Assembly: GCA_021831035.1 (NCBI GenBank)
Contig: JAKBNL010000006.1
Span: 37,652-101,651, forward strand
DNA: 64,000 nt
Reading direction: 5' to 3'
Source: Actinomycetes bacterium
Lineage (GTDB): Bacteria > Actinomycetota > Acidimicrobiia > Acidimicrobiales > RAAP-2
The notes below the pieces were generated by a model. It was not told the DNA's origin and made no database searches. It worked only from the letters and a program-made list of their open reading frames with translations. This document shows positions 9,897 to 20,333 of the stretch, one piece after another (within the stretch, counting starts at the first letter, position 1; each line of letters starts with the position of its first letter). A program made the translations under genes and the position numbers.

Positions 9897-11192
9897 CTAG
9901 AACCGGGGCGGATCGGCGCGGCGGCGGACGCGGCGCACCGCGATGACGCTGCGCGCGTAGGCGAGGGGACCGTAGGCCATTCCCATCGCGTGGAGGAGGG
10001 CCGTCGTGCGCGGGTAGCTGGGTGCGGCGCTGAGGGATCGGGGCGTCGAGGGGCGGAAGAACATCTTGAGACCACGGGGCAGGCGCCGCAGGATCCTCCC
10101 GAGATGGCGAGGGTCCTCCGCGGCCAGCGCGCAGTACAAGGCGGTGAGGCCGACGCCGTAGCCAAAGACCTGCTCGCGGAACTCGTGGGGGGTCCGTCGA
10201 TGCGAGTGGCGCACCAGCGCGGAGGGGACGAACGCCACGGTGCCGCCGAGCAGGAGGACCTCGATGAAGACCTTGAGGTCTTCCGCGCCGCGAGCGATGG
10301 TCCCGGCCCCCAGTCGCACGTCGAATCCTCCAGCGCGCTGGAGGGCCGCCCGTCTCACGGCCATGTTGTTGCCGGCACCGAAGCGACCCGCGGCGTACGG
10401 GAAGAGGGGGTCGGTCTTCCCGACGAGCGCGACGCTCCAACGCTGCGGCGTGAAGGTCTTGGTGAAGCCGCCGAAGAACTCTTCGAACCACAGCTGGGCC
10501 TCGGTGTCGAGCTCGGCCGGACGGACCATCCCGCCCACGGCGTCGACGTCGGCGTCGGTGGCGAAGGCCACGCCCAGGGCGCGTAGCCATCGTGGGTCGA
10601 CCTCCACGTCGTCGTCGGTGAACGCTACGATCTCGCCGCGGGAACTGGCCGCACCGCGATTGCGCGCCGATGACGCACCCGGGAACCTCTCAACCTCGAT
10701 CCGGACGTTCTCGAGGTCACTGAACGGTGGTATTGGGTCGCCGTCGCGGCGACGGTTGTCGACGACGATCACCTCGAAGGAGGGGTAGTCGCACGCGGCG
10801 ACCGAACGCACCGCCCGATCGAGGAGGTCGACGCGACGATAGAGCGTGGGGATGACCACCGACATGGTCGGCAGGGCGTCGTCCGGGACACGAGAGAGGT
10901 CGGCGACCTCGGCGTCGCGGTACTCGAGCGCGATCCTCGCGACGTCGTCGTCGCCCAGGCCCTCGGATCCGAGAAGACGCTCGCTGACGCCGAGCACCTG
11001 GCCGGAGCGGAGCACTTCCAGCCAGATCCGACCCGTCGGCGACGTCGCGCTGTCTCGCTCTTTCGCGTCCAGGTCGAGCCGGACGAGCCGGACCGGGCTC
11101 GGTCTTTCGTCGTCGGGGACTTTCACGACGTCCACGATACGTTTGCCGGCGGACGCCGGATCGTCACGACGTGCGATGGAGGAAGGGACCAC
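9897..11192 (-). CDS. Glycosyltransferase family 2
   Basis: SVVIPTL, VIVVDN, ARNRG, AFTDDD, GAEDL motifs. Confidence 0.92.
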   Translation of the reverse strand: MVPSSIARRDDPASAGKRIVDVVKVPDDERPSPVRLVRLDLDAKERDSATSPTGRIWLEVLRSGQVLGVSERLLGSEGLGDDDVARIALEYRDAEVADLSRVPDDALPTMSVVIPTLYRRVDLLDRAVRSVAACDYPSFEVIVVDNRRRDGDPIPPFSDLENVRIEVERFPGASSARNRGAASSRGEIVAFTDDDVEVDPRWLRALGVAFATDADVDAVGGMVRPAELDTEAQLWFEEFFGGFTKTFTPQRWSVALVGKTDPLFPYAAGRFGAGNNMAVRRAALQRAGGFDVRLGAGTIARGAEDLKVFIEVLLLGGTVAFVPSALVRHSHRRTPHEFREQVFGYGVGLTALYCALAAEDPRHLGRILRRLPRGLKMFFRPSTPRSLSAAPSYPRTTALLHAMGMAYGPLAYARSVIAVRRVRRRADPPRF

Positions 11193-11235: not shown

Positions 11236-12102
11236 ATGGGACCGCGTGTGTCAATCGTTGTGCCCGCGCACAATGAAGTGTCGAGGGTCGGCGGGCTGCT
11301 CGACGATCTCTCGGGCCTCGTGGCTCGGGGCGTCGCCAGTGTCGTCGTGGTGTGCAACGGGTGTACGGACGACACCGCCAAGGTCGCTAGCAGTCGAGAG
11401 GGTGTGCACGTCGTTGAGATTGCCCCTCGGGGCAAGAGTCACGCTCTTAACGCCGGTGACGTCGAAGCCGGCGACGTATATCCTCGGCTCTACTGCGACG
11501 CCGACGTTCGCATTGACGAGACGTCGGTGATCCAATTGACTCGGGCCCTCGACGGGGAGAGCGCGCGGGCGGTTGGACCGCGGGTGAACCACGATCTCGC
11601 CAACGCACACTGGATTGTGCGCCTCTTCTACGAAGCACTCGGTGCCCCAGTGGTGGCAGGCTGGATCAATCGCCACCTCGTGGGCCGTGGACTCTACGGC
11701 ACGAATAGGGCCGGGCGTGCTCGCTTCGGTGAGTTCCCGCTCCTCATCGCCGACGACCTCTTCTTTGACGCTCAGTTCGACGAGGGCGAGCGCGTCATCG
11801 TTGCGGCGGCGCAGGTGACCATCCCCGTCCCGCTGTCGTTGCGCGAGCTGCTTCGCCGTGAGATTCGGGTGGCGGCGGGAAACCGTGACCTCTTTGTCCC
11901 ACGAGCCCGGTCAGAGCTGACCCCCTATCTCGAAGTTCGCGCGGACAACTGGCGAGATCGCGCTGCCAACTTCGCTCGCTGGTTCCGTCAGGTTCGCGCG
12001 CGTGACATAGCACCGCTGGCCGTTTACTCCGCGGTTGTGGGGACCAGCCGACTATTACTCTTCGTTAGGAGCTGGCGAGGCTCGAGCCTCCCGTGGCGCT
12101 AG
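11236..12102 (+). CDS. Glycosyltransferase family 2
   Basis: SIVVPAHNE, VVCNGCTDDT, GKSHALN, YCDAD. Confidence 0.9.
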   Translation: MGPRVSIVVPAHNEVSRVGGLLDDLSGLVARGVASVVVVCNGCTDDTAKVASSREGVHVVEIAPRGKSHALNAGDVEAGDVYPRLYCDADVRIDETSVIQLTRALDGESARAVGPRVNHDLANAHWIVRLFYEALGAPVVAGWINRHLVGRGLYGTNRAGRARFGEFPLLIADDLFFDAQFDEGERVIVAAAQVTIPVPLSLRELLRREIRVAAGNRDLFVPRARSELTPYLEVRADNWRDRAANFARWFRQVRARDIAPLAVYSAVVGTSRLLLFVRSWRGSSLPWR

Positions 12103-12737: not shown

Positions 12738-14000
12738 CTACGCGACCGGCACGCTCTCAATCCGTCGGTAGCGACGAATGGACATTGGGAGAAACATGAG
12801 CGCGGTAAGACCGGAATACACCAGAGACGCGATGCCAATTGAGTTGATGCCGTAGTGGCCGAGAAGCAGCAGAACGATGAGGACATAAACCACGCTGAAG
12901 ACGACGTTGCGAGCGGTGAGCCACCACACCCGCTTGTCGAGCCAGGCGAAGGTGCTATAGAACACCATGACGGCCACACCCGAGAGGGAGATCAGGAGCA
13001 TCCGCATCAGTGCTGTGCCGTGAGCGGCGTAACCCGCTCCGAAGACACGAAGGTACTCGGGCGCGAAGATGACGCCCAGCACGATCGACGGGACGAGAAC
13101 GACCGTCAAACCCTTGATGGCTGAATTGGCATGTTGTCTCAGTGCATGAGGCTCGTGCGAGGCCTCAACGAGAAATGAGCGTGCGATGCTCCAGGCAAAA
13201 GTACCAAGACTGTTGGAGATCATCGCGGGCAAGTAGTAGTACGCGTTCTCCACGGCGCCCAAGCGCTGGATCACGAGAAGCGTCACCAGGGCAGGTAAGA
13301 AAACGGTCGTCAAGACCGAAGCGTACTGCGCACCCGAGAGGATTACGAGCTCACGCGTCGTGGGGAGGTCTTCAGTACGGGTAGACGCCTCAATGTGTCC
13401 AGGAATCCGAACGCGGAAGAGATACAGCGAAACGAGCGCATCAGCGACGATGACCGGGATGACCCACGAGATAATGGTGCCCTGGGCCTTCGAGACAATG
13501 AGGAAGCAGGGGAGCAGCGCGAGTTTCGCTATGCCGTAGCCGATGTTTTCAACGGCGACCCATCGAGATGCCCTTAGTCCAATCAGGGCGGAATCTTGTA
13601 GCGCAAAGATAGTCCACGCAATCACGGCGACAAGGAAGAACGCCTTACTGGCTATACCCTCCTCGAGGAAGTGGTGCCCGAAGCCCAAGACTTCGTATCC
13701 GACGCTAAAGACCAATGCCGTCGACAGGGTCAAAACGTAAGAGCGTGCGATGAAGCGTCGCGTGAGTTCCCCGGCTACGGGAAGGAAGCGCTCGAAAATC
13801 GATCCGAAACTGAGTTGAGCAATTGTGGCGAGTAAGACCATTGCCGCAATTTCGGCCGTCGTCTTTCCAATGACTGACGTTGGTGCGAGTCGTGCGGCGA
13901 GCACCCAGAACGCGACCCCCAACAGCGCCGACCCTCCCGAAGACACCATCAGCGCGATGGCGTTTTGGATGAGGCGATTTTGCCGTAGCGGGTGTTTCAT
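12738..14000 (-). CDS. Wzx-like polysaccharide flippase
   Basis: Many TM segments with MATE/Wzx-type spacing (GVAFWVLAARL, FERFLP, AYYYLP). ATG at 14000 preferred; the ORF track starts at 14129. Confidence 0.8.
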   Translation of the reverse strand: MKHPLRQNRLIQNAIALMVSSGGSALLGVAFWVLAARLAPTSVIGKTTAEIAAMVLLATIAQLSFGSIFERFLPVAGELTRRFIARSYVLTLSTALVFSVGYEVLGFGHHFLEEGIASKAFFLVAVIAWTIFALQDSALIGLRASRWVAVENIGYGIAKLALLPCFLIVSKAQGTIISWVIPVIVADALVSLYLFRVRIPGHIEASTRTEDLPTTRELVILSGAQYASVLTTVFLPALVTLLVIQRLGAVENAYYYLPAMISNSLGTFAWSIARSFLVEASHEPHALRQHANSAIKGLTVVLVPSIVLGVIFAPEYLRVFGAGYAAHGTALMRMLLISLSGVAVMVFYSTFAWLDKRVWWLTARNVVFSVVYVLIVLLLLGHYGINSIGIASLVYSGLTALMFLPMSIRRYRRIESVPVA

Positions 14001-15282
14001 CAACTCTCGAGACTTATTTGGCACCAACTTGCTCCCGGCAAAATAGGAACGTCGCTCCAAACGCTTGTAGGCAGGGTATCCCGAAGTCCGTTGCACGTTG
14101 AGGTCACCAGGGTGCCGTGTCGCCCTCACCCTTGGCCCGGGCTACTGGGTCCCTGCGGTCGGGCCTCCGCCCGAGGAGTACTCCTCGCCTACCCGATGCC
14201 CTGGGTCACTCTCGAGTGCGATGGCGTTGCCGAAGGGAACTGACTCAGTGAGATGCGGGTGTGTGATAGCGCTCTCCCACGGGACTCTTCGGGTTCCAGC
14301 GCGCAAGGGTACCCGGACCACCCCCGCCGCCGACGTCGTGACGACCGCATCGGCTTCCCCGGAGGTGACGACGTTGATTTCGTCGTTCGACGTTGCCGGT
14401 CACCAGATGCAGATCGATCGATTGGAACTCCGTCTCGCCGAGCCGCGGTCTGTTCGAGAATCCACCCTGAGAAGGGAGCCCTTCCCCCTACGTGACCAAA
14501 TCGCCAGCGGATGAGCGAACTACTGGAACGACGCCGTGGTGATCGACGCCTCGGCCACGGCCACTGTGACGGAATGTGGTGGGAGGTGACCGATCGACAG
14601 TGGCCGCCGCCCCGGGTCCGTCGAGGTATCCGAACTGCACGACGGTCACCCAGATGAGCCCGGGGTTGAGGGGCGAGCCCTTCGACCCGAGGTTCTCGAT
14701 GTCCTCGTGGCGAGCGAGGGCAGAAACGGACTTGTTCCACGACGTCGGTCACGCCGTCAACTGCTTGTCCACCGCTGGATAACCGTGTCCCCGTCGTCCA
14801 ACTCACCGAGCGGGCGCGTACGCGAAAGGTCTGCGGACGGCCGTTCCGGCTATAAGGGGTTGCAGGGCTCGGGGCCCGTCGCGACGGTCTGCGCTGGACG
14901 GGCACGTGTGGTCGCCAGGGGCGAGAGCCTCTCTCACTCACAACGCCGCGTTGGCGTAGTGGCACCCGATTCTCGAAGCAGACACGGTGCATCGGATGTG
15001 GCTGCCACCCGAGGACATCGTGCCCGTCGCCGTCTCGGATAGAGCGCATGACAGGCGAGTTCGCCGGTGCGGCCTCGACAAACGCGCACCAGGAGCGTGC
15101 GCGGGACCGCGCATCTCGTCACACGGCGTGTCACTCAGAATCGACGCCGACCAGAGTGGTTACAAGCCACTCCGATCGATGGGCCGTGTAGATTACCTCC
15201 AACGGTGTGGCGATTCGGTTCTGAACCTCAGTCGAAGGGGTGTGATGCAGGTGATGCTCAGATTGCCGAGCCACCTTCGGCT

Positions 15283-16413
15283 GTGACGGCCACCGTGTCG
15301 TGGAGGAAGAAAGTCGCGTCCCGCATCGCCGATGCGCTCTTTGACCGCCGGCAACGGCTTAAGAGGACCTACCTGACTCGAGTCGCGGGTGAGCTCGTCG
15401 GGGTCGATCAACGGCTCAAGTGCTTCGTGGATGGCTCAGGGGAGTTCGCGGTGGCACGGAACAACTCGCGAATGGCGATTGCGGTGACGGAGACGCCGGT
15501 AGACGGAAGCTATCTAGTTCTGAAGTCGGGAACGGATGTCGCCTCAAGGCGAGAGCTCGATGTTGAAACGGCTTGTCTCAGCCAGATTAGGAGTGATCTC
15601 CTCGGGTCGGGATTCCTTGCGTATCTCCCTGAACGCATTGTCGCCCAACCCGATGGTCCTCTGCCCTTTATCGTCTACGCTTCCCCTTCGAGGTACACCG
15701 CGCTGGATGTGGCGCGCGCAGGTGGACTAGACGAGGATCTGATCACTGATGCTCTCGACACTGTTAGACGGTTGAAGGAGGAGACCTCGGTCATCGCTAC
15801 CGCCGACCCGTCCCTCATTGAGAGGACAGTCGGACGAAGGGTCGACGTCATCCGAGAGCAATGGGGGGGAGCCTTCTTCTGGAGAGAGGATCAGAGCCGC
15901 CTCAATGTGCTACGGAGGGAGTTGGTCGCGTCGTTGGAAGGCTGTCGGGTCGAACAAGGATGGCAGCACGGGGACTTTTCACTGGGCAACGTCCTCATCG
16001 ATCCGGTACGTCGCCGCGTGGCCGGCATAATCGATTGGGGTGGAAGTGCCTCCGACGAGATTGTCGGCGTCGACCCCTCGCTCTTCGCGCTCAGTGTGTT
16101 TGCCTTCCGCACGTCAACTGATGTGAACGCCAGTGTCGCACGTCTCGTCAAAGTCCTTGCGAGTCCCACTGAGAGGAGTGAGGACGAGCGGCGAGTGATC
16201 GAACGGATGAAGGAAGCGTGGCCCACGACTCAGGACCTGACTCTCATGCAGGGATTGGTGGTGACCTGGCTATATCACGTCGCCCACCTCTTCAAGATTC
16301 GATCCCCGAATGTCTTGGCTCCGGGACACTGGGTTCAACGAGAGAGCTCTCGAGCCCTCCGAGCCGTTGTCGAGTGGGGAATCCCGAACCTTCGGGCGGG
16401 CTTCAGGTCCTAG
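15283..16413 (+). CDS. Aminoglycoside-phosphotransferase/choline-kinase-like protein
   Basis: Brenner motif HGDFSLGNVL and IIDWG. The start is uncertain; the ORF is open from 15067. Confidence 0.75.
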   Translation: MTATVSWRKKVASRIADALFDRRQRLKRTYLTRVAGELVGVDQRLKCFVDGSGEFAVARNNSRMAIAVTETPVDGSYLVLKSGTDVASRRELDVETACLSQIRSDLLGSGFLAYLPERIVAQPDGPLPFIVYASPSRYTALDVARAGGLDEDLITDALDTVRRLKEETSVIATADPSLIERTVGRRVDVIREQWGGAFFWREDQSRLNVLRRELVASLEGCRVEQGWQHGDFSLGNVLIDPVRRRVAGIIDWGGSASDEIVGVDPSLFALSVFAFRTSTDVNASVARLVKVLASPTERSEDERRVIERMKEAWPTTQDLTLMQGLVVTWLYHVAHLFKIRSPNVLAPGHWVQRESSRALRAVVEWGIPNLRAGFRS

Positions 16414-16551: not shown

Positions 16552-17451
16552 CTATAGGTGGAAGAGTCCAACCATGGTGCGGGCGGACTTCGCACCGGCG
16601 AGGGGCGAGAGCCGAAGGAGTTGCTCGGTGGTGCGCAGCAGCGAGTAGTGGGTCAGGTAGGCGCCGACCTTGAGTCCGCGCGGCACGCTCGGGGCGATCA
16701 CAATGGTGGGCACGTGGTTGGTGGAACCCGAGGTGTTCTCGTCGAAGGTGATCGCGAGGACCAAACTGCCCGAGCGGTACTGGGGACTTGACAGCACTTT
16801 GGGGACGAAGGTGCGCATCCACGTGTCGCCCGCGGCCACCGAGCAGTCGTGCATGTCGTGGCACAGGTTCGGAGTGACGAAGGTGAACGGCTGGGTGAAC
16901 GAAGGCTGCGCGGGAAGCGGAACGTCGTTGCGAGCACACGTCGCACCGAGATCGGTGAAGTACGCCGCAGGGTTGTGCTTGGCGGCGTACTCACCGGCGG
17001 AGACCTTGTCGCAGGGCGTGGGCATCGATTCCACGTAAGAGCGCCACTTCCCGTTCAACTGGGAGAAGATGCTCTGAGCGGCGAGGGGATGGCTAGCCGG
17101 ATCGTTGTCGTCGCTGATGCCCTGAGCGGAGCCGGAGGTGAGGGCGATGTAATTGGGCAGGCTGGGATGCGTCGTTCCGTGGTAATTGGTGGCGAGCCCG
17201 CATAGAGAGATGAGATGGTTGAGGTACGGCGCCTCGGGTGAGCCAACGACGCCGTAGCCGACATTCTCGAGAACTATCCAGACAACGTGCTGGTAACTCT
17301 GCGTTGCGGCGTGGACACCGCAGGGTTGCGCCACGGTTGGCGCCGTGTGTGCCGCGGACGCAGTCGTGGCGGGAAGGGTCACCAGAATGCTCGCACAGAG
17401 GATGGTCGCTCCAACTACTGCGCGGCTACGGATGCGGGATCGTATTCTCAC
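16552..17451 (-). CDS. Secreted phosphoesterase (acid phosphatase/alkaline phosphatase superfamily)
   Basis: Signal peptide MRIRSRIRSRAVVGATILC...ASA; IVLEN, THPSLPNYIAL, KHNP, TPNLCHDMHD, ITFDE. Confidence 0.88.
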   Translation of the reverse strand: MRIRSRIRSRAVVGATILCASILVTLPATTASAAHTAPTVAQPCGVHAATQSYQHVVWIVLENVGYGVVGSPEAPYLNHLISLCGLATNYHGTTHPSLPNYIALTSGSAQGISDDNDPASHPLAAQSIFSQLNGKWRSYVESMPTPCDKVSAGEYAAKHNPAAYFTDLGATCARNDVPLPAQPSFTQPFTFVTPNLCHDMHDCSVAAGDTWMRTFVPKVLSSPQYRSGSLVLAITFDENTSGSTNHVPTIVIAPSVPRGLKVGAYLTHYSLLRTTEQLLRLSPLAGAKSARTMVGLFHL

Positions 17452-17681
17452 GCCCGCGAGATTAGGTCGACACCACGGATATTGGGTGTCGGGTCTCGCC
17501 CCGCTTCGCGGGGCGGTCGTGGCCACGCCCAACGCCGCTCCACCGCTGACGGGAGCCACCCTGGAGCACGGGCGTCGACGCCTCCTGGGGGCGCGTGGCC
17601 CCACGGGCGTGTCGAGATGGCGCGCCTCGACGGGCGCACTTTCGGGGTCGAGGACGGGTGGGCCTAATCTAATATGGGCCA

Positions 17682-20333
17682 GTGAGGGACGTCGATCTCC
17701 TACTGGAGCTTGACGACCTCATCGGACGGTCGTGCGCTGAGGCGGCGGCGGGACGATGGCTCGACGCGTACTTACTGGCCGCGGGCGCCTGGCAGGTCTG
17801 CGAGGACCGTCACGTCGGTACGGGCTTAGCTCAACTTTCGGTGCTGCGTCACACCGCGGCTCACCGGTCACGACGTGCCCTTTCGGTTGTTGAGCAACTC
17901 TGGAGGGCTCGTGAATCGTGGTCGAGGACTCGCCGCCGATGGGGCCGTGGGCGACGTCTAGATCGCACCGAGACGATCCTCACCGAGGTCCTCGTGACTC
18001 TCGCGCGCCGTGTCCTTACCTCCACGACCGTCGACACGGACGCTGAGATAGTGGATCGGCTGGAGGAAGTGAAGGGTCTGGTGGGGCGTTTGCCCGGTCG
18101 AGACAGGGCGAGCGTATGCACGATGCCGTCATCCTTCCGCAGCTTCGACCAGCGACCCGAGGATGTCCTGACGTTGGTCGAGCGGCTCATCGCGGTGCGA
18201 GGGTACCCCGAGGCACCGGTCGTCGTAGGCGTTCGGACCTCAGGTGCGTATCTCGCCCCCTTGGCACTGGCCGCGCTGGAGGCGCGCGGAGTGGAAGGCG
18301 CGTCCATAATCTCAATGCGCCCGGGTGCCCACCTCAATCCGTACGCCCTATCCAGAGTCCGCGCTCGCGGCGCCGAGTCGTCATTCCTCATCGTCGACGA
18401 TCCACCCTCCTCTGGTTCTGCGCTTGCGGCAGTCGCTCGCGGGCTACGCCGCTTCGTGGCCGACGCCGACAAGGTGACGTTCCTGGTCGCGACGATCACC
18501 GAGGACGGTTCGCTGCCCCAAGAACTGGATGACTTTCCCAGGGTGACGCTGCCCTGGGAGGAGTGGAAGATCCACTCGGAGCTCGCCGTGCCCAGGCTGG
18601 AGGGTGCCATCACGTCAGCCCTGTCAGCCAACGAGCGAGTCGTCTCGCTGGAGATCGTCGGCCCTGTCGCCCTGACCCGTCGGGAACACGTTCGAGTGAC
18701 CGTCCGCGCGACGGTGGCGACCGCGGACGGTGACGTTGATCAAAGGCTCCTCGCCGTACGCGGCGTCGGCCTCGGCTATCTCGGGCGCGATGCGCTGCGA
18801 GTGGCGGAAGCGCTGGGGGGACTCGTGTCTCGACCCCTTGCGATGGTGGGTGCCCTCCTCGTCGAAGAGCCACTGGATGGGGACGGAGACGCGCCGCCCC
18901 CGTCACCCGTGGTGGTCAAGTATCTGGCTCGACGGGCAGCGACCCTCGGCGTGGCGAGAGACCGCAGCGGCGACCGAGGGCTCTCGGCGAGTGTCAGTGG
19001 CGTGGCGTCACTTCTCATGGTCCGCTCGCTAGGGCCGCGCGCCTCTTTGGTTGCGGCTCGCGTGCTCGGTCCGGCGGTGCGTCTCGTTCTTCGTGCAGAG
19101 CACCCCGCAGTGATTGACGGCGCCATCGGCCGACAGCATTGGGGGAAGCGCGAGGGACGCTGGGCCAAGCGCGACTACGCCGACGGGGCCTTCTCCAACA
19201 GGGACCTCGCGTGCTACGACCTCGCGTTTGATCTCGCGTCGTCGGCCGTCGACGGAGACTCCGAGCGTGAGCGGACGCTCCGAGCTCTTTACGCCGAGGC
19301 AGTAGGGGATCAGATTGACGAGTGCCGATGGCTGCTCTACACGCTGGTGGCCTTGTGGGATCGCCATCGCGCAGGGGAGCTCGATCGATTCGAGTACTCT
19401 CGTCGCCAATCCGCGGCCGTGGTCAACTTTTTGTCCGAGGTCTATCTCGGCGACCTCGCCCCCGTTCACAGTGGCCCCGTGGTAGCGCTCGACCTCGATG
19501 GGGTCCTCGAGACGTCCGGTGGGAGTTACTCGGCACCAGGAAGGCTTGGCATGGTGTCGCTTCGGGCCCTTCTGGCCCACGGCTATCAAGTCATCGTGGC
19601 GACCGGGCGGAGCGCGACCGAAGTGGTTGATCGGGTCCGACCCCTACGCCTCGCGGGGGGCGTTGCGGAGTACGGATCGGCCATCGTGACGGCCGATGGC
19701 GACGTCCACGCCGTGATTGACGCGGGTGCCCTCGATGCCATCTCGCACCTTCGCACCCGGATTGCCGCGCTCAATGAGATTGACGTCGATCCTGGATTCT
19801 CCTACTCCATTCGGGCCTCACATAAGCGTCACCTCGGGCGACTCTCGAGCGGTGAGATGCAGCAGCTCGTCCGCTGCATTGAGTCCGACGGAAGGGCGGA
19901 TCTCCAGTTGATTCGAGGGGACAACCAGGTCGACCTGGTGGATAAGGGAGTCAACAAGGCGGCGGGGGTCGCCGCGCTCATTGGGCGCGACGGAAGTGAG
20001 GGTCCCCTCGTTCGTCTGGCCATGGGCGACACCGCCGCCGATCGCCCACTCCTTGAACGCGCCGAGCGTGCGGTCGTTCCCCGTAACGCCGTCGGGGAGC
20101 TTCGTCGGGACCGGTTCACCGTCACGGCGGGTCGATTTCAGGCCGGTGTCGTCGAGGCTGTCACTCGCGAGATCGGGCACCGACCGGGGGAGTGTTCGAT
20201 CTGCCGGCTGCCGTCGATACGTCCCGAAGCGGATTTGATCGCCAAGGCACTCTCGCTCGCCGAAGCCGGAACGTGGCCCGGGTTACTTCGGACCTCACGA
20301 CTGCTCTTGTGGGAGGCGCACCGTCGCGGGTGA
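17682..20333 (+). CDS. Multidomain protein: PRTase-like + kinase-like + HAD-IIB phosphatase
   Basis: PRPP-binding-like LIVDDPPSSGSAL. Complete HAD motifs ALDLDGV, ATGRS, NKAAG, GDTAAD. The kinase-like middle (IDGAIG...KRDY...DLAFDLA) is a weaker call. Confidence 0.75.
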   Translation: MRDVDLLLELDDLIGRSCAEAAAGRWLDAYLLAAGAWQVCEDRHVGTGLAQLSVLRHTAAHRSRRALSVVEQLWRARESWSRTRRRWGRGRRLDRTETILTEVLVTLARRVLTSTTVDTDAEIVDRLEEVKGLVGRLPGRDRASVCTMPSSFRSFDQRPEDVLTLVERLIAVRGYPEAPVVVGVRTSGAYLAPLALAALEARGVEGASIISMRPGAHLNPYALSRVRARGAESSFLIVDDPPSSGSALAAVARGLRRFVADADKVTFLVATITEDGSLPQELDDFPRVTLPWEEWKIHSELAVPRLEGAITSALSANERVVSLEIVGPVALTRREHVRVTVRATVATADGDVDQRLLAVRGVGLGYLGRDALRVAEALGGLVSRPLAMVGALLVEEPLDGDGDAPPPSPVVVKYLARRAATLGVARDRSGDRGLSASVSGVASLLMVRSLGPRASLVAARVLGPAVRLVLRAEHPAVIDGAIGRQHWGKREGRWAKRDYADGAFSNRDLACYDLAFDLASSAVDGDSERERTLRALYAEAVGDQIDECRWLLYTLVALWDRHRAGELDRFEYSRRQSAAVVNFLSEVYLGDLAPVHSGPVVALDLDGVLETSGGSYSAPGRLGMVSLRALLAHGYQVIVATGRSATEVVDRVRPLRLAGGVAEYGSAIVTADGDVHAVIDAGALDAISHLRTRIAALNEIDVDPGFSYSIRASHKRHLGRLSSGEMQQLVRCIESDGRADLQLIRGDNQVDLVDKGVNKAAGVAALIGRDGSEGPLVRLAMGDTAADRPLLERAERAVVPRNAVGELRRDRFTVTAGRFQAGVVEAVTREIGHRPGECSICRLPSIRPEADLIAKALSLAEAGTWPGLLRTSRLLLWEAHRRG

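Follow-up and report, generated by a model that had tools for sequence, protein, structure and literature searches.

An uninterrupted open reading frame (ORF) on the forward strand of the 64,000-nucleotide stretch analyzed here (the window; Acidimicrobiales assembly GCA_021831035.1, contig JAKBNL010000006.1, positions 37,652 to 101,651) encodes a protein of 883 amino acids (aa) that combines a phosphoribosyltransferase (PRTase), a kinase-fold domain and a HAD phosphatase. We refer to this protein, encoded at window positions 17682-20333, and to its relatives as PRT-K-HAD. We established the domain identities, motif conservation, gene context, natural fusions and distribution of the family. The best reading of these data, which we hold with evenly balanced confidence, is that PRT-K-HAD would carry out a two-step ribofuranosyl addition in an envelope-glycan pathway, at a cytoplasmic, membrane-proximal site. 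A preliminary description made from the sequence had proposed a ribose-containing building block as the product; because of the gene context and the natural fusions, we favor the decoration of a lipid-linked envelope glycan over such a soluble compound.

Domain architecture of the PRT-K-HAD protein

The gene (17682..20333, +) starts with GTG at 17682 and ends with the stop codon at 20331-20333. Its nearest homologues, of 882 and 875 aa and 62-64% identity, align from residue 1-4, which indicates that the long N-terminus is real and supports the GTG start. The gene call stored for the source genome has 779 aa and is 104 residues short at the N-terminus (window 17682-17993). Judged by the conserved N-terminal helical bundle, GTG 17682 is the true start. 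By direct reading, a TAATAT hexamer ends 6 nucleotides 5' of this codon, which may fit a leaderless mRNA. An AlphaFold2 model of the full-length protein, built from a 55-sequence alignment, was confident throughout (mean predicted local distance difference test (pLDDT) 91, predicted template modeling score (pTM) 0.92), indicating a single compact multi-domain enzyme. From N- to C-terminus, it comprises the helical bundle, a type I PRTase, a pseudokinase of the APH/choline-kinase fold, a HAD-IIB domain and a His/Cys/Cys tail; no hydrophobic segment was found in the 883 aa. The helical bundle (residues 1-145; 17682..18116, +) carries a conserved WLDAYLLAAGxxQ motif and is replaced by a GT4 glycosyltransferase domain in one relative.

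By homology and by both of its motifs, the region of residues ~146-295 (18117..18566, +) clearly belongs to the type I PRTase superfamily. Built from 25 family members, a profile of the region matched PyrR in the PDB with E=1.2e-4 over ~120 residues, with OPRT, APRT and HGPRT next, and the PyrR alignment spans both the pyrophosphate (PPi) loop and the motif for phosphoribosyl pyrophosphate (PRPP). The single sequence matches Pfam PF00156 weakly (E=0.022, 14.5 bits, below the Pfam cut-off of 26.3), and 24 of the 25 members match this family, the best with E=9e-9. In the model, the region is alpha/beta, with a strand at 180-184 followed by GVRTSG and a strand at 235-239 that leads into DDPPSSGSA.

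The PPi loop GVRTSG (residues 183-188; 18228..18245, +) lies after the first core strand, where the stretch VVGVRTSGAYLA aligns to LVGIKTRGIYLA of PyrR, with GIKTRG as the corresponding loop; G183, R185 and G188 are invariant. The PRPP-binding motif FLIVDDPPSSGSA (residues 235-247; 18384..18422, +) aligns to VILVDDVLYTGRT of PyrR and consists of a hydrophobic strand, two acidic residues and the phosphate-binding loop, with D239, P241 and P242 invariant. Each of the two motifs is present in 185 of the 196 family members over which motif conservation was counted. We infer that PRPP is the donor, which the PRTase domain would bind and use. The domain resembles nucleotide PRTases (PyrR/UPRT, OPRT, APRT; PF00156) in its fold, in the PPi loop that follows the first strand and in the PRPP motif. 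In contrast to these enzymes, it is embedded in an 883-aa protein, has no recognizable base-binding hood, and shows a DDPPxSG variant of the motif that is peculiar to the PRT-K-HAD family; moreover, its context is glycan assembly and theirs is nucleotide synthesis. The PRTases of Ter clusters (PRTase_2/TRSP) were rejected as relatives, since they were matched by only one of the 25 members, with E=0.12.

Residues 598-835 (19473..20186, +) form a HAD-IIB phosphatase domain with a C2B cap, and motifs, Pfam and Foldseek identify it as a bona fide member of that superfamily. Motif I, D604-L-D606, which provides the nucleophile and the Asp+2 general acid/base (19491..19499, +), is found in 183 of 196 members. 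The remaining motifs are all present (T641 in motif II, K759 in motif III and GD783xxxD787 in motif IV), with the alpha/beta C2B cap placed between motifs II and III. Pfam Hydrolase_3 scored 32.1 bits against a cut-off of 20.9; TIGR01484 aligned end to end with a score under its cut-off, and the domain stayed under the cut-off of every NCBIfam equivalog. Best Foldseek matches were PH1421, OtsB2 and sucrose-phosphatase at ~E=1e-9 (1wr8: E=1.5e-9, TMt ~0.8), and all among the 50 matches listed for the full-length model were HAD proteins. Mutases of the PMM type were missing from the best 50 structural matches of the HAD domain, and such a role was therefore judged unlikely.

HAD-IIB enzymes such as OtsB, sucrose-6-phosphate phosphatase (SPP) and MpgP classically complete transferase reactions that leave a phosphorylated glycoside. 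PRT-K-HAD has all four HAD motifs and the C2B cap in common with these enzymes and with those of the Cof/YidA type, and it would follow the logic of the former three, in which the glycoside phosphate from a preceding transferase is dephosphorylated. The structural neighbors OtsB2, SPP and MpgP are sugar-phosphate phosphatases that act after glycosyl transfer, which supports the two-step reading. The HAD domain of our family differs from all of them by its fusion to a PRTase and a pseudokinase and by an invariant HxxxxCxxC tail. This tail, H833-x4-C838-x2-C841 (20178..20204, +; 194 of 196 members), comes just after the HAD domain and is followed by amphipathic C-terminal helices. It has three obvious metal ligands and no more, and could act as a metal site or as a tail close to the membrane.

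The middle domain (residues 296-597; 18567..19472, +) was assigned to the APH/choline-kinase (ELK) fold by a fold search with the AlphaFold model; against Pfam and the PDB, it gave no sequence match, even when a profile was used. A separate AlphaFold model of the domain (pLDDT 92.8) matched fructosamine-3-kinase, choline/ethanolamine, methylthioribose and homoserine kinases and maltokinase (E 1.6e-6 to 3e-4, probability 1.00), as well as glucosamine kinase and macrolide phosphotransferase; the PDB matches include 3f7w, 2qg7, 5eqp, 2ppq and 2olc (E 1.6e-6 to 3e-5). The bilobal fold is thus shared with the ELK kinases (PF01636; Foldseek E=1.6e-6, probability 1.00), whereas sequence-level similarity and catalytic motifs are not. 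The Brenner motif HxDxxxxN occurs in 0 of 196 members, and the Mg-binding Asp (DFG/DxD) is not conserved, as residue 498 after strand beta7 can be D, G, S, A, N, L or R. Across the family, neither a conserved Lys-Glu pair nor a canonical P-loop was found in this domain. Invariant are R334, G363, G365, R418, D479, K496, D513 and D517. The pocket of the domain is charged and conserved, and by sequence criteria the domain is a pseudokinase that would have lost kinase activity; in terms of the predicted structure, it belongs to the APH/ELK kinases by fold and not by catalysis. A comparison with hhalign did not support the idea that it is a diverged copy of the APH kinases encoded nearby (probability 0.1%, no match).

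These results agree with much of the preliminary description, which had pointed to a PRPP-type motif in the N-terminal part, a full HAD-IIB motif set at the C-terminus and a degenerate APH fold in between: FLIVDDPPSSGSA aligns to the PyrR motif, the N-terminal domain is related to PRTases by the profile match and by PF00156, Hydrolase_3 exceeds its cut-off, and the model of the middle domain matches ELK kinases with the catalytic motifs gone. Its suggested one-polypeptide route holds in part. Phosphoribosyl transfer followed by dephosphorylation stays the best-supported sequence of events, whereas a re-phosphorylation step is unlikely because the Brenner motif and a conserved Mg-binding Asp are missing. 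The description also knew of no characterized enzyme with this architecture. In line with this, there is no NCBIfam equivalog for it, database names for homologues are generic (just 'HAD family phosphatase' or 'hypothetical'), and a literature search found no description of a PRTase-kinase-fold-HAD architecture.

Family distribution, gene neighborhoods and natural fusions

With clusters formed at 50% identity, an exhaustive HMMER search yielded 882 cluster representatives at E<=0.001 and, among these, 418 at E<=1e-30; a length of 850-1000 aa and an end-to-end match hold for nearly all. The 30-64% identity of full-length homologues, together with the 418 cluster representatives, argues that the architecture is not due to chance. 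In a scan of one genome per species, relatives were found in 203 species from phyla that include Actinomycetota, Chloroflexota and Dormibacterota. Carriers comprise Streptomyces, Kitasatospora, Streptacidiphilus, Nocardia, Rhodococcus, Amycolatopsis, Pseudonocardia and Terrabacter as well as Solirubrobacterales, Acidimicrobiales, Chloroflexota and Dormibacterota.

Neighboring genes were counted by targeted tblastn over 80 non-redundant related loci. The commonest neighbor is a homologue of a Wzx/MOP-like flippase candidate with ~10 hydrophobic segments (12738..14129, - in the window), which is found in 55 of the 80 loci, in 26 of them directly downstream of PRT-K-HAD and in the same orientation. 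GT2 glycosyltransferases were found in 52 loci, APH kinases in 44 and phosphoesterases in 24. Additionally, 53 of all 83 loci, the set used for this count, encode a polytopic membrane protein of ~620 aa (for example L084:17953-19860, -), which has at least 7 hydrophobic segments and ends in a soluble domain. It gave no sequence match in Pfam, NCBIfam or the PDB and is labeled 'glycosyltransferase' by NCBI; we regard it as a candidate for an unclassified GT-C-like transferase or polymerase. One family member lies within a full Wzz/Wzy/Wzx locus with GT4, GT2, APH and DegT genes, according to Pfam-labeled gene calls. Another is part of a translationally coupled operon of GT2, GT2, flippase::APH, GT2::polytopic protein, CE4 deacetylase, PRT-K-HAD, FemAB-like GNAT and epimerase genes, and loci of Streptomyces and Kitasatospora additionally hold GH16 and FAD-oxidoreductase genes. 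The PRT-K-HAD family is part of envelope-glycan loci.

Several components of these loci occur as natural fusions. The protein P0130 is a GT2::PRT-K-HAD fusion, the GT2 part of which is 52% identical to an AglG-like GT2 for which a fusion with the polytopic protein exists elsewhere, and a GT4::PRT-K-HAD fusion, in which GT4 takes the place of the helical bundle, is encoded at locus L008. P0183 joins PRT-K-HAD to a flippase, with a membrane part that matches the flippase of the window (E=4e-25), and an ORF of 1823 aa (L059:9233-14704, +) has the same order with a further kinase-like C-terminus. The locus L085 encodes a flippase::APH kinase fusion of 725 aa (L085:4266-6443, +) and the polytopic protein fused to an AglG-like GT2. 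In G040:C29:9186-11840, flippase and polytopic protein are apparently fused in one open frame of 1414 aa. Candidate GT2 fusions in L030 and L022 were rejected, as their N-terminal extensions are over-extended ORFs. Judged by these fusions, flippase, kinase, transferases and polytopic protein may form a physical complex, and the fusion links draw a membrane-associated assembly in which PRT-K-HAD adjoins the flippase.

Among 41 relatives, 12 genomes have the flippase and 13 the polytopic protein; both are found together in 12, so that the two co-occur almost perfectly. PRT-K-HAD is present in four genomes (2 of 25 within the same genus): three of the 12 that have both flippase and polytopic protein, and a fourth, G038, that has neither partner. 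By this presence pattern, flippase and polytopic protein are the core and PRT-K-HAD is an optional add-on; its distribution is what a decoration step that is optional would show. In the window, the guanine-cytosine (GC) content between 10 and 20 kb is 62-66%, compared to 70-76% in the flanks. Together with the rarity of the gene in the genus (2 of 25 genomes), this is consistent with a horizontally acquired, island-like glycan cluster.

Besides the flippase, the cluster in the window comprises an MftF/AglG-like GT2 of 431 aa (9897..11192, -), the homologues of which account for the GT2 count above, a small GT2 of 288 aa (11236..12102, +), an APH-family kinase in which the HGDFSLGN and IIDW motifs are intact (15067..16413, +) and a divergent phosphoesterase of the PF04185 (PLC/AcpA) type with a signal-peptide-like N-terminus (16552..17604, -). 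The first ~100 codons of the APH ORF look non-homologous, and its uncertain start is probably downstream of 15067. Within the listed phosphoesterase ORF, a signal-like segment (RIRSRIRSR...ASA) is located ~60 residues inside; the enzyme is probably exported, with its real start downstream of the listed GTG, and would be an extracellular PLC/AcpA-type enzyme tied to the glycan cluster. The divergent flippase and APH genes are separated by ~0.9-1.2 kb (window 14130-15300), which is unusually long for a 1.9-Mb genome. The sole long ORF in that gap (14189-15049, -) encodes an Arg/Pro/Ser-rich product without family match and is probably no gene.

Proposed function and alternative explanations

In the reaction that we propose, the PRTase domain would bind PRPP-Mg and transfer ribose-5-phosphate onto a hydroxyl group of a lipid-linked glycan made by the neighboring GT2s; polyprenyl phosphate itself is the less likely acceptor. 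The HAD-IIB domain would then remove the 5-phosphate, and the Wzx-like flippase would export the finished unit. The kinase-fold domain would probably serve as an acceptor-binding or scaffolding module by means of its conserved Arg/His/Lys/Asp pocket. We infer the donor PRPP, the acceptor, the order of reactions and the non-catalytic nature of the kinase fold from the domains and their context.

A number of points weigh against two-step ribofuranosylation. PRTase-fold domains can be pure ligand sensors that retain the PRPP motif (PurR and, in part, PyrR are examples), binding and catalysis by this fold cannot be separated from sequence, and the family is known here from sequences and predicted structures. 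A pseudokinase with invariant D479 and K496 could catalyze non-canonically. The window cluster contains no obvious priming transferase, and the other half of the cassette in the same genome (C3:9700-22400), with GH16, AglG-like GT2, polytopic protein (C3:15396-16655, -), GT2 and SDR epimerase genes, is found on the same contig outside the window, ~25 kb upstream of the cluster. Furthermore, no sequence similarity was detected to gPRT/CriT or PRP/CrpP, the known glycan ribosylation enzymes discussed below. We know of no ribose-containing glycan from any carrier organism, and a literature search on ribofuranose in actinomycete cell-wall polymers gave nothing relevant.

Four other explanations have to be considered. 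It is unlikely that the HAD-IIB domain alone is catalytic, as a sugar-phosphate phosphatase of the glycan pathway, and that the PRTase-like and kinase-like domains are pseudoenzymes that, as sensors of a nucleotide, (p)ppGpp or PRPP, modulate the phosphatase or the flippase complex. Such a role is favored by PurR-type PRTase domains, which retain the PRPP motif but merely bind ligands (PMC8789054); it also fits that the PRTase domain has its nearest solved relatives in the PyrR proteins, which are mainly regulators, and that its motifs already mark the middle domain as a pseudoenzyme. However, PPi loop, RPG loop and DDPP motif are all invariant, and an active site would more typically retain such a complete set. 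Moreover, the GT2 and GT4 fusions parallel known ribofuranose transferases, and a phosphatase alone does not explain the accessory add-on distribution. We consider it distinctly unlikely that the PRTase ribosylates a small-molecule nucleophile and that the HAD domain then yields a soluble riboside or nucleoside-like compound for use by the neighboring enzymes as precursor or cofactor. The PRTase domain is indeed nearer to nucleotide-type PRTases than to gPRT/CriT, a priming phosphoglycosyltransferase is missing from the window cluster, and the best GT2 neighbor matches are MftF-like, the MftF family having a small molecule as its glycosylation substrate. However, the fusions with flippase and AglG-like GT2 put the enzyme at the membrane and on lipid-linked intermediates, one member lies in a Wzz/Wzy/Wzx locus, and the cassette has no nucleotidyltransferase or activating enzyme by which a free riboside could be reused.

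A variant in which polyprenyl phosphate is the acceptor appears very unlikely. Here, the PRTase would put ribose-5-phosphate on polyprenyl phosphate as a soluble type I substitute for UbiA-type PPPRS/DPPR synthase, the basic pocket of the pseudokinase would hold the lipid phosphate, and the HAD domain would yield polyprenyl-P-ribofuranose, which the flippase would export as a donor for the polytopic, possibly GT-C-like, protein. SDR epimerase or FAD oxidoreductase genes in some loci recall the epimerization of lipid-P-ribofuranose (PMC11127046). The link to the flippase is very tight, with direct adjacency and fusions; since the flippase is fused at the C-terminal end of PRT-K-HAD, this end must be at the membrane, and the unclassified polytopic protein with its C-terminal soluble domain in 53 of 83 loci would also fit. 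Against this variant, we know of no type I PRTase with a phosphate monoester as nucleophile. The flippase is of the large MOP/Wzx type typical for oligosaccharide units and neither GtrA nor MATE, and 9 of 12 related genomes have flippase and polytopic protein without PRT-K-HAD, from which it follows that the flippase has another substrate. Finally, there is little chance that PRT-K-HAD has three activities, either with an atypical active kinase that re-phosphorylates another position via D479 and K496 or with the HAD-IIB domain as a PMM-type phosphomutase. The invariant D479 is at the position of the catalytic-loop Asp, K496, R334 and R418 are invariant too, and sugar kinases (methylthioribose, fructosamine-3- and glucosamine kinase, maltokinase) are among the structural neighbors. 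Against this reading stand the lack of the Brenner motif in all 196 members, the variable residue 498, the missing Lys-Glu pair and canonical P-loop, the separate, fully canonical APH kinase encoded nearby, and the lack of PMM-type mutases among the best 50 HAD matches mentioned above.

Relation to known ribosylation systems and implications

The chemistry proposed for PRT-K-HAD has a precedent, which the preliminary description left unmentioned, in the gPRT-PRP or CriT-CrpP systems, in which a PRTase-like gPRT or CriT and a HAD phosphatase perform a two-step ribofuranosylation from PRPP (PMC11127046, PMC10299916, PMC12096443). Examples are Klebsiella O4/O7, Hib Bcs3 and the GT4-fused Campylobacter Cj1432 (PMC11127046, PMC10299916, PMC12096443), and these enzymes are likewise fused to other glycosyltransferase modules (PMC11127046, PMC11231755, PMC10299916, PMC12096443). 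PRT-K-HAD resembles them in having a PRTase-fold PRPP-type transferase and a HAD-superfamily phosphatase on one polypeptide, helical bundles that flank the PRTase core, a location in surface-glycan loci, and glycosyltransferase fusions (GT4 in Cj1432, GT2 or GT4 in PRT-K-HAD). When the PRTase-domain profile was searched against the PDB at E<=10, the 45 distinct sequences matched were nearly all nucleotide-type PRTases or PRTase-fold regulators, with no capsule polymerase or glycan ribofuranosyltransferase among them. Because sequence similarity to gPRT/CriT and PRP/CrpP is lacking, the likeness is functional and not one of homology. The differences are substantial: the transferase of PRT-K-HAD is a canonical type I enzyme (PyrR/OPRT-like), and its phosphatase is of the HAD-IIB type with a C2B cap, in contrast to the small helical-cap PRP. 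The order of domains is reversed, with the PRTase first and HAD at the C-terminus, whereas PRP is N-terminal to its transferase, and a pseudokinase of 300 aa stands between the two domains. In addition, the hosts are monoderm phyla with a Wzx-type flippase instead of an ABC transporter. By this comparison, PRT-K-HAD is probably a convergent solution to PRPP-dependent glycan ribosylation, outside gPRT-PRP membership.

A second comparison concerns the three-component pentofuranose and mycobacterial DPPR systems, which consist of a UbiA-type PPPRS or Rv3806c, the phosphatase PRP or Rv3807c, a flippase and a GT-C enzyme (PMC11127046, PMC10994848). Transfer of PRPP-derived ribose-5-phosphate followed by 5-dephosphorylation, as predicted for PRT-K-HAD, is common to both, as is the genetic coupling to a flippase and a polytopic membrane protein, with an epimerase or oxidoreductase in some loci. 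In contrast to the UbiA-fold membrane enzyme, PRT-K-HAD is a soluble type I PRTase without transmembrane segment; its associated flippase is MOP/Wzx-like, and the flippase-polytopic pair is mostly found without PRT-K-HAD in relatives.

A broader proposal, which we regard as rather doubtful, would extend this to the evolution of the pathway. In the monoderm phyla Actinomycetota, Chloroflexota and Dormibacterota, a third machine for PRPP-dependent pentofuranosylation might have evolved independently by combining a canonical nucleotide-type PRTase and a HAD-IIB phosphatase with a repurposed pseudokinase for presentation of the lipid-linked acceptor. This machine would be docked on, or fused to, a Wzx-like flippase, the ribofuranosyl cap would be a 'finished' mark that licenses export, and the polytopic partner would be an unclassified glycosyltransferase or polymerase.

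The occurrence of ribofuranose in bacterial glycans was reportedly explained only in 2022-2024. To our knowledge, every characterized enzyme for glycan ribofuranose stems from Gram-negative bacteria and belongs to one gPRT-PRP lineage or to the UbiA-type synthases. If our reading is correct, PRPP-dependent glycosylation would have arisen independently at least three times, and its reach would extend to soil actinomycetes (Streptomyces, Kitasatospora, Nocardia and Rhodococcus) and to poorly known phyla. PRT-K-HAD would also be a clear example of a kinase fold that is reused as a non-catalytic module within a glycosyltransferase. The chain of fusions between GT2, flippase, APH kinase and polytopic protein outlines a membrane complex that is unstudied. 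Overall, a correct reading would predict undiscovered envelope decorations with ribose or derived pentofuranoses in these bacteria, relevant to phage and toxin receptors.

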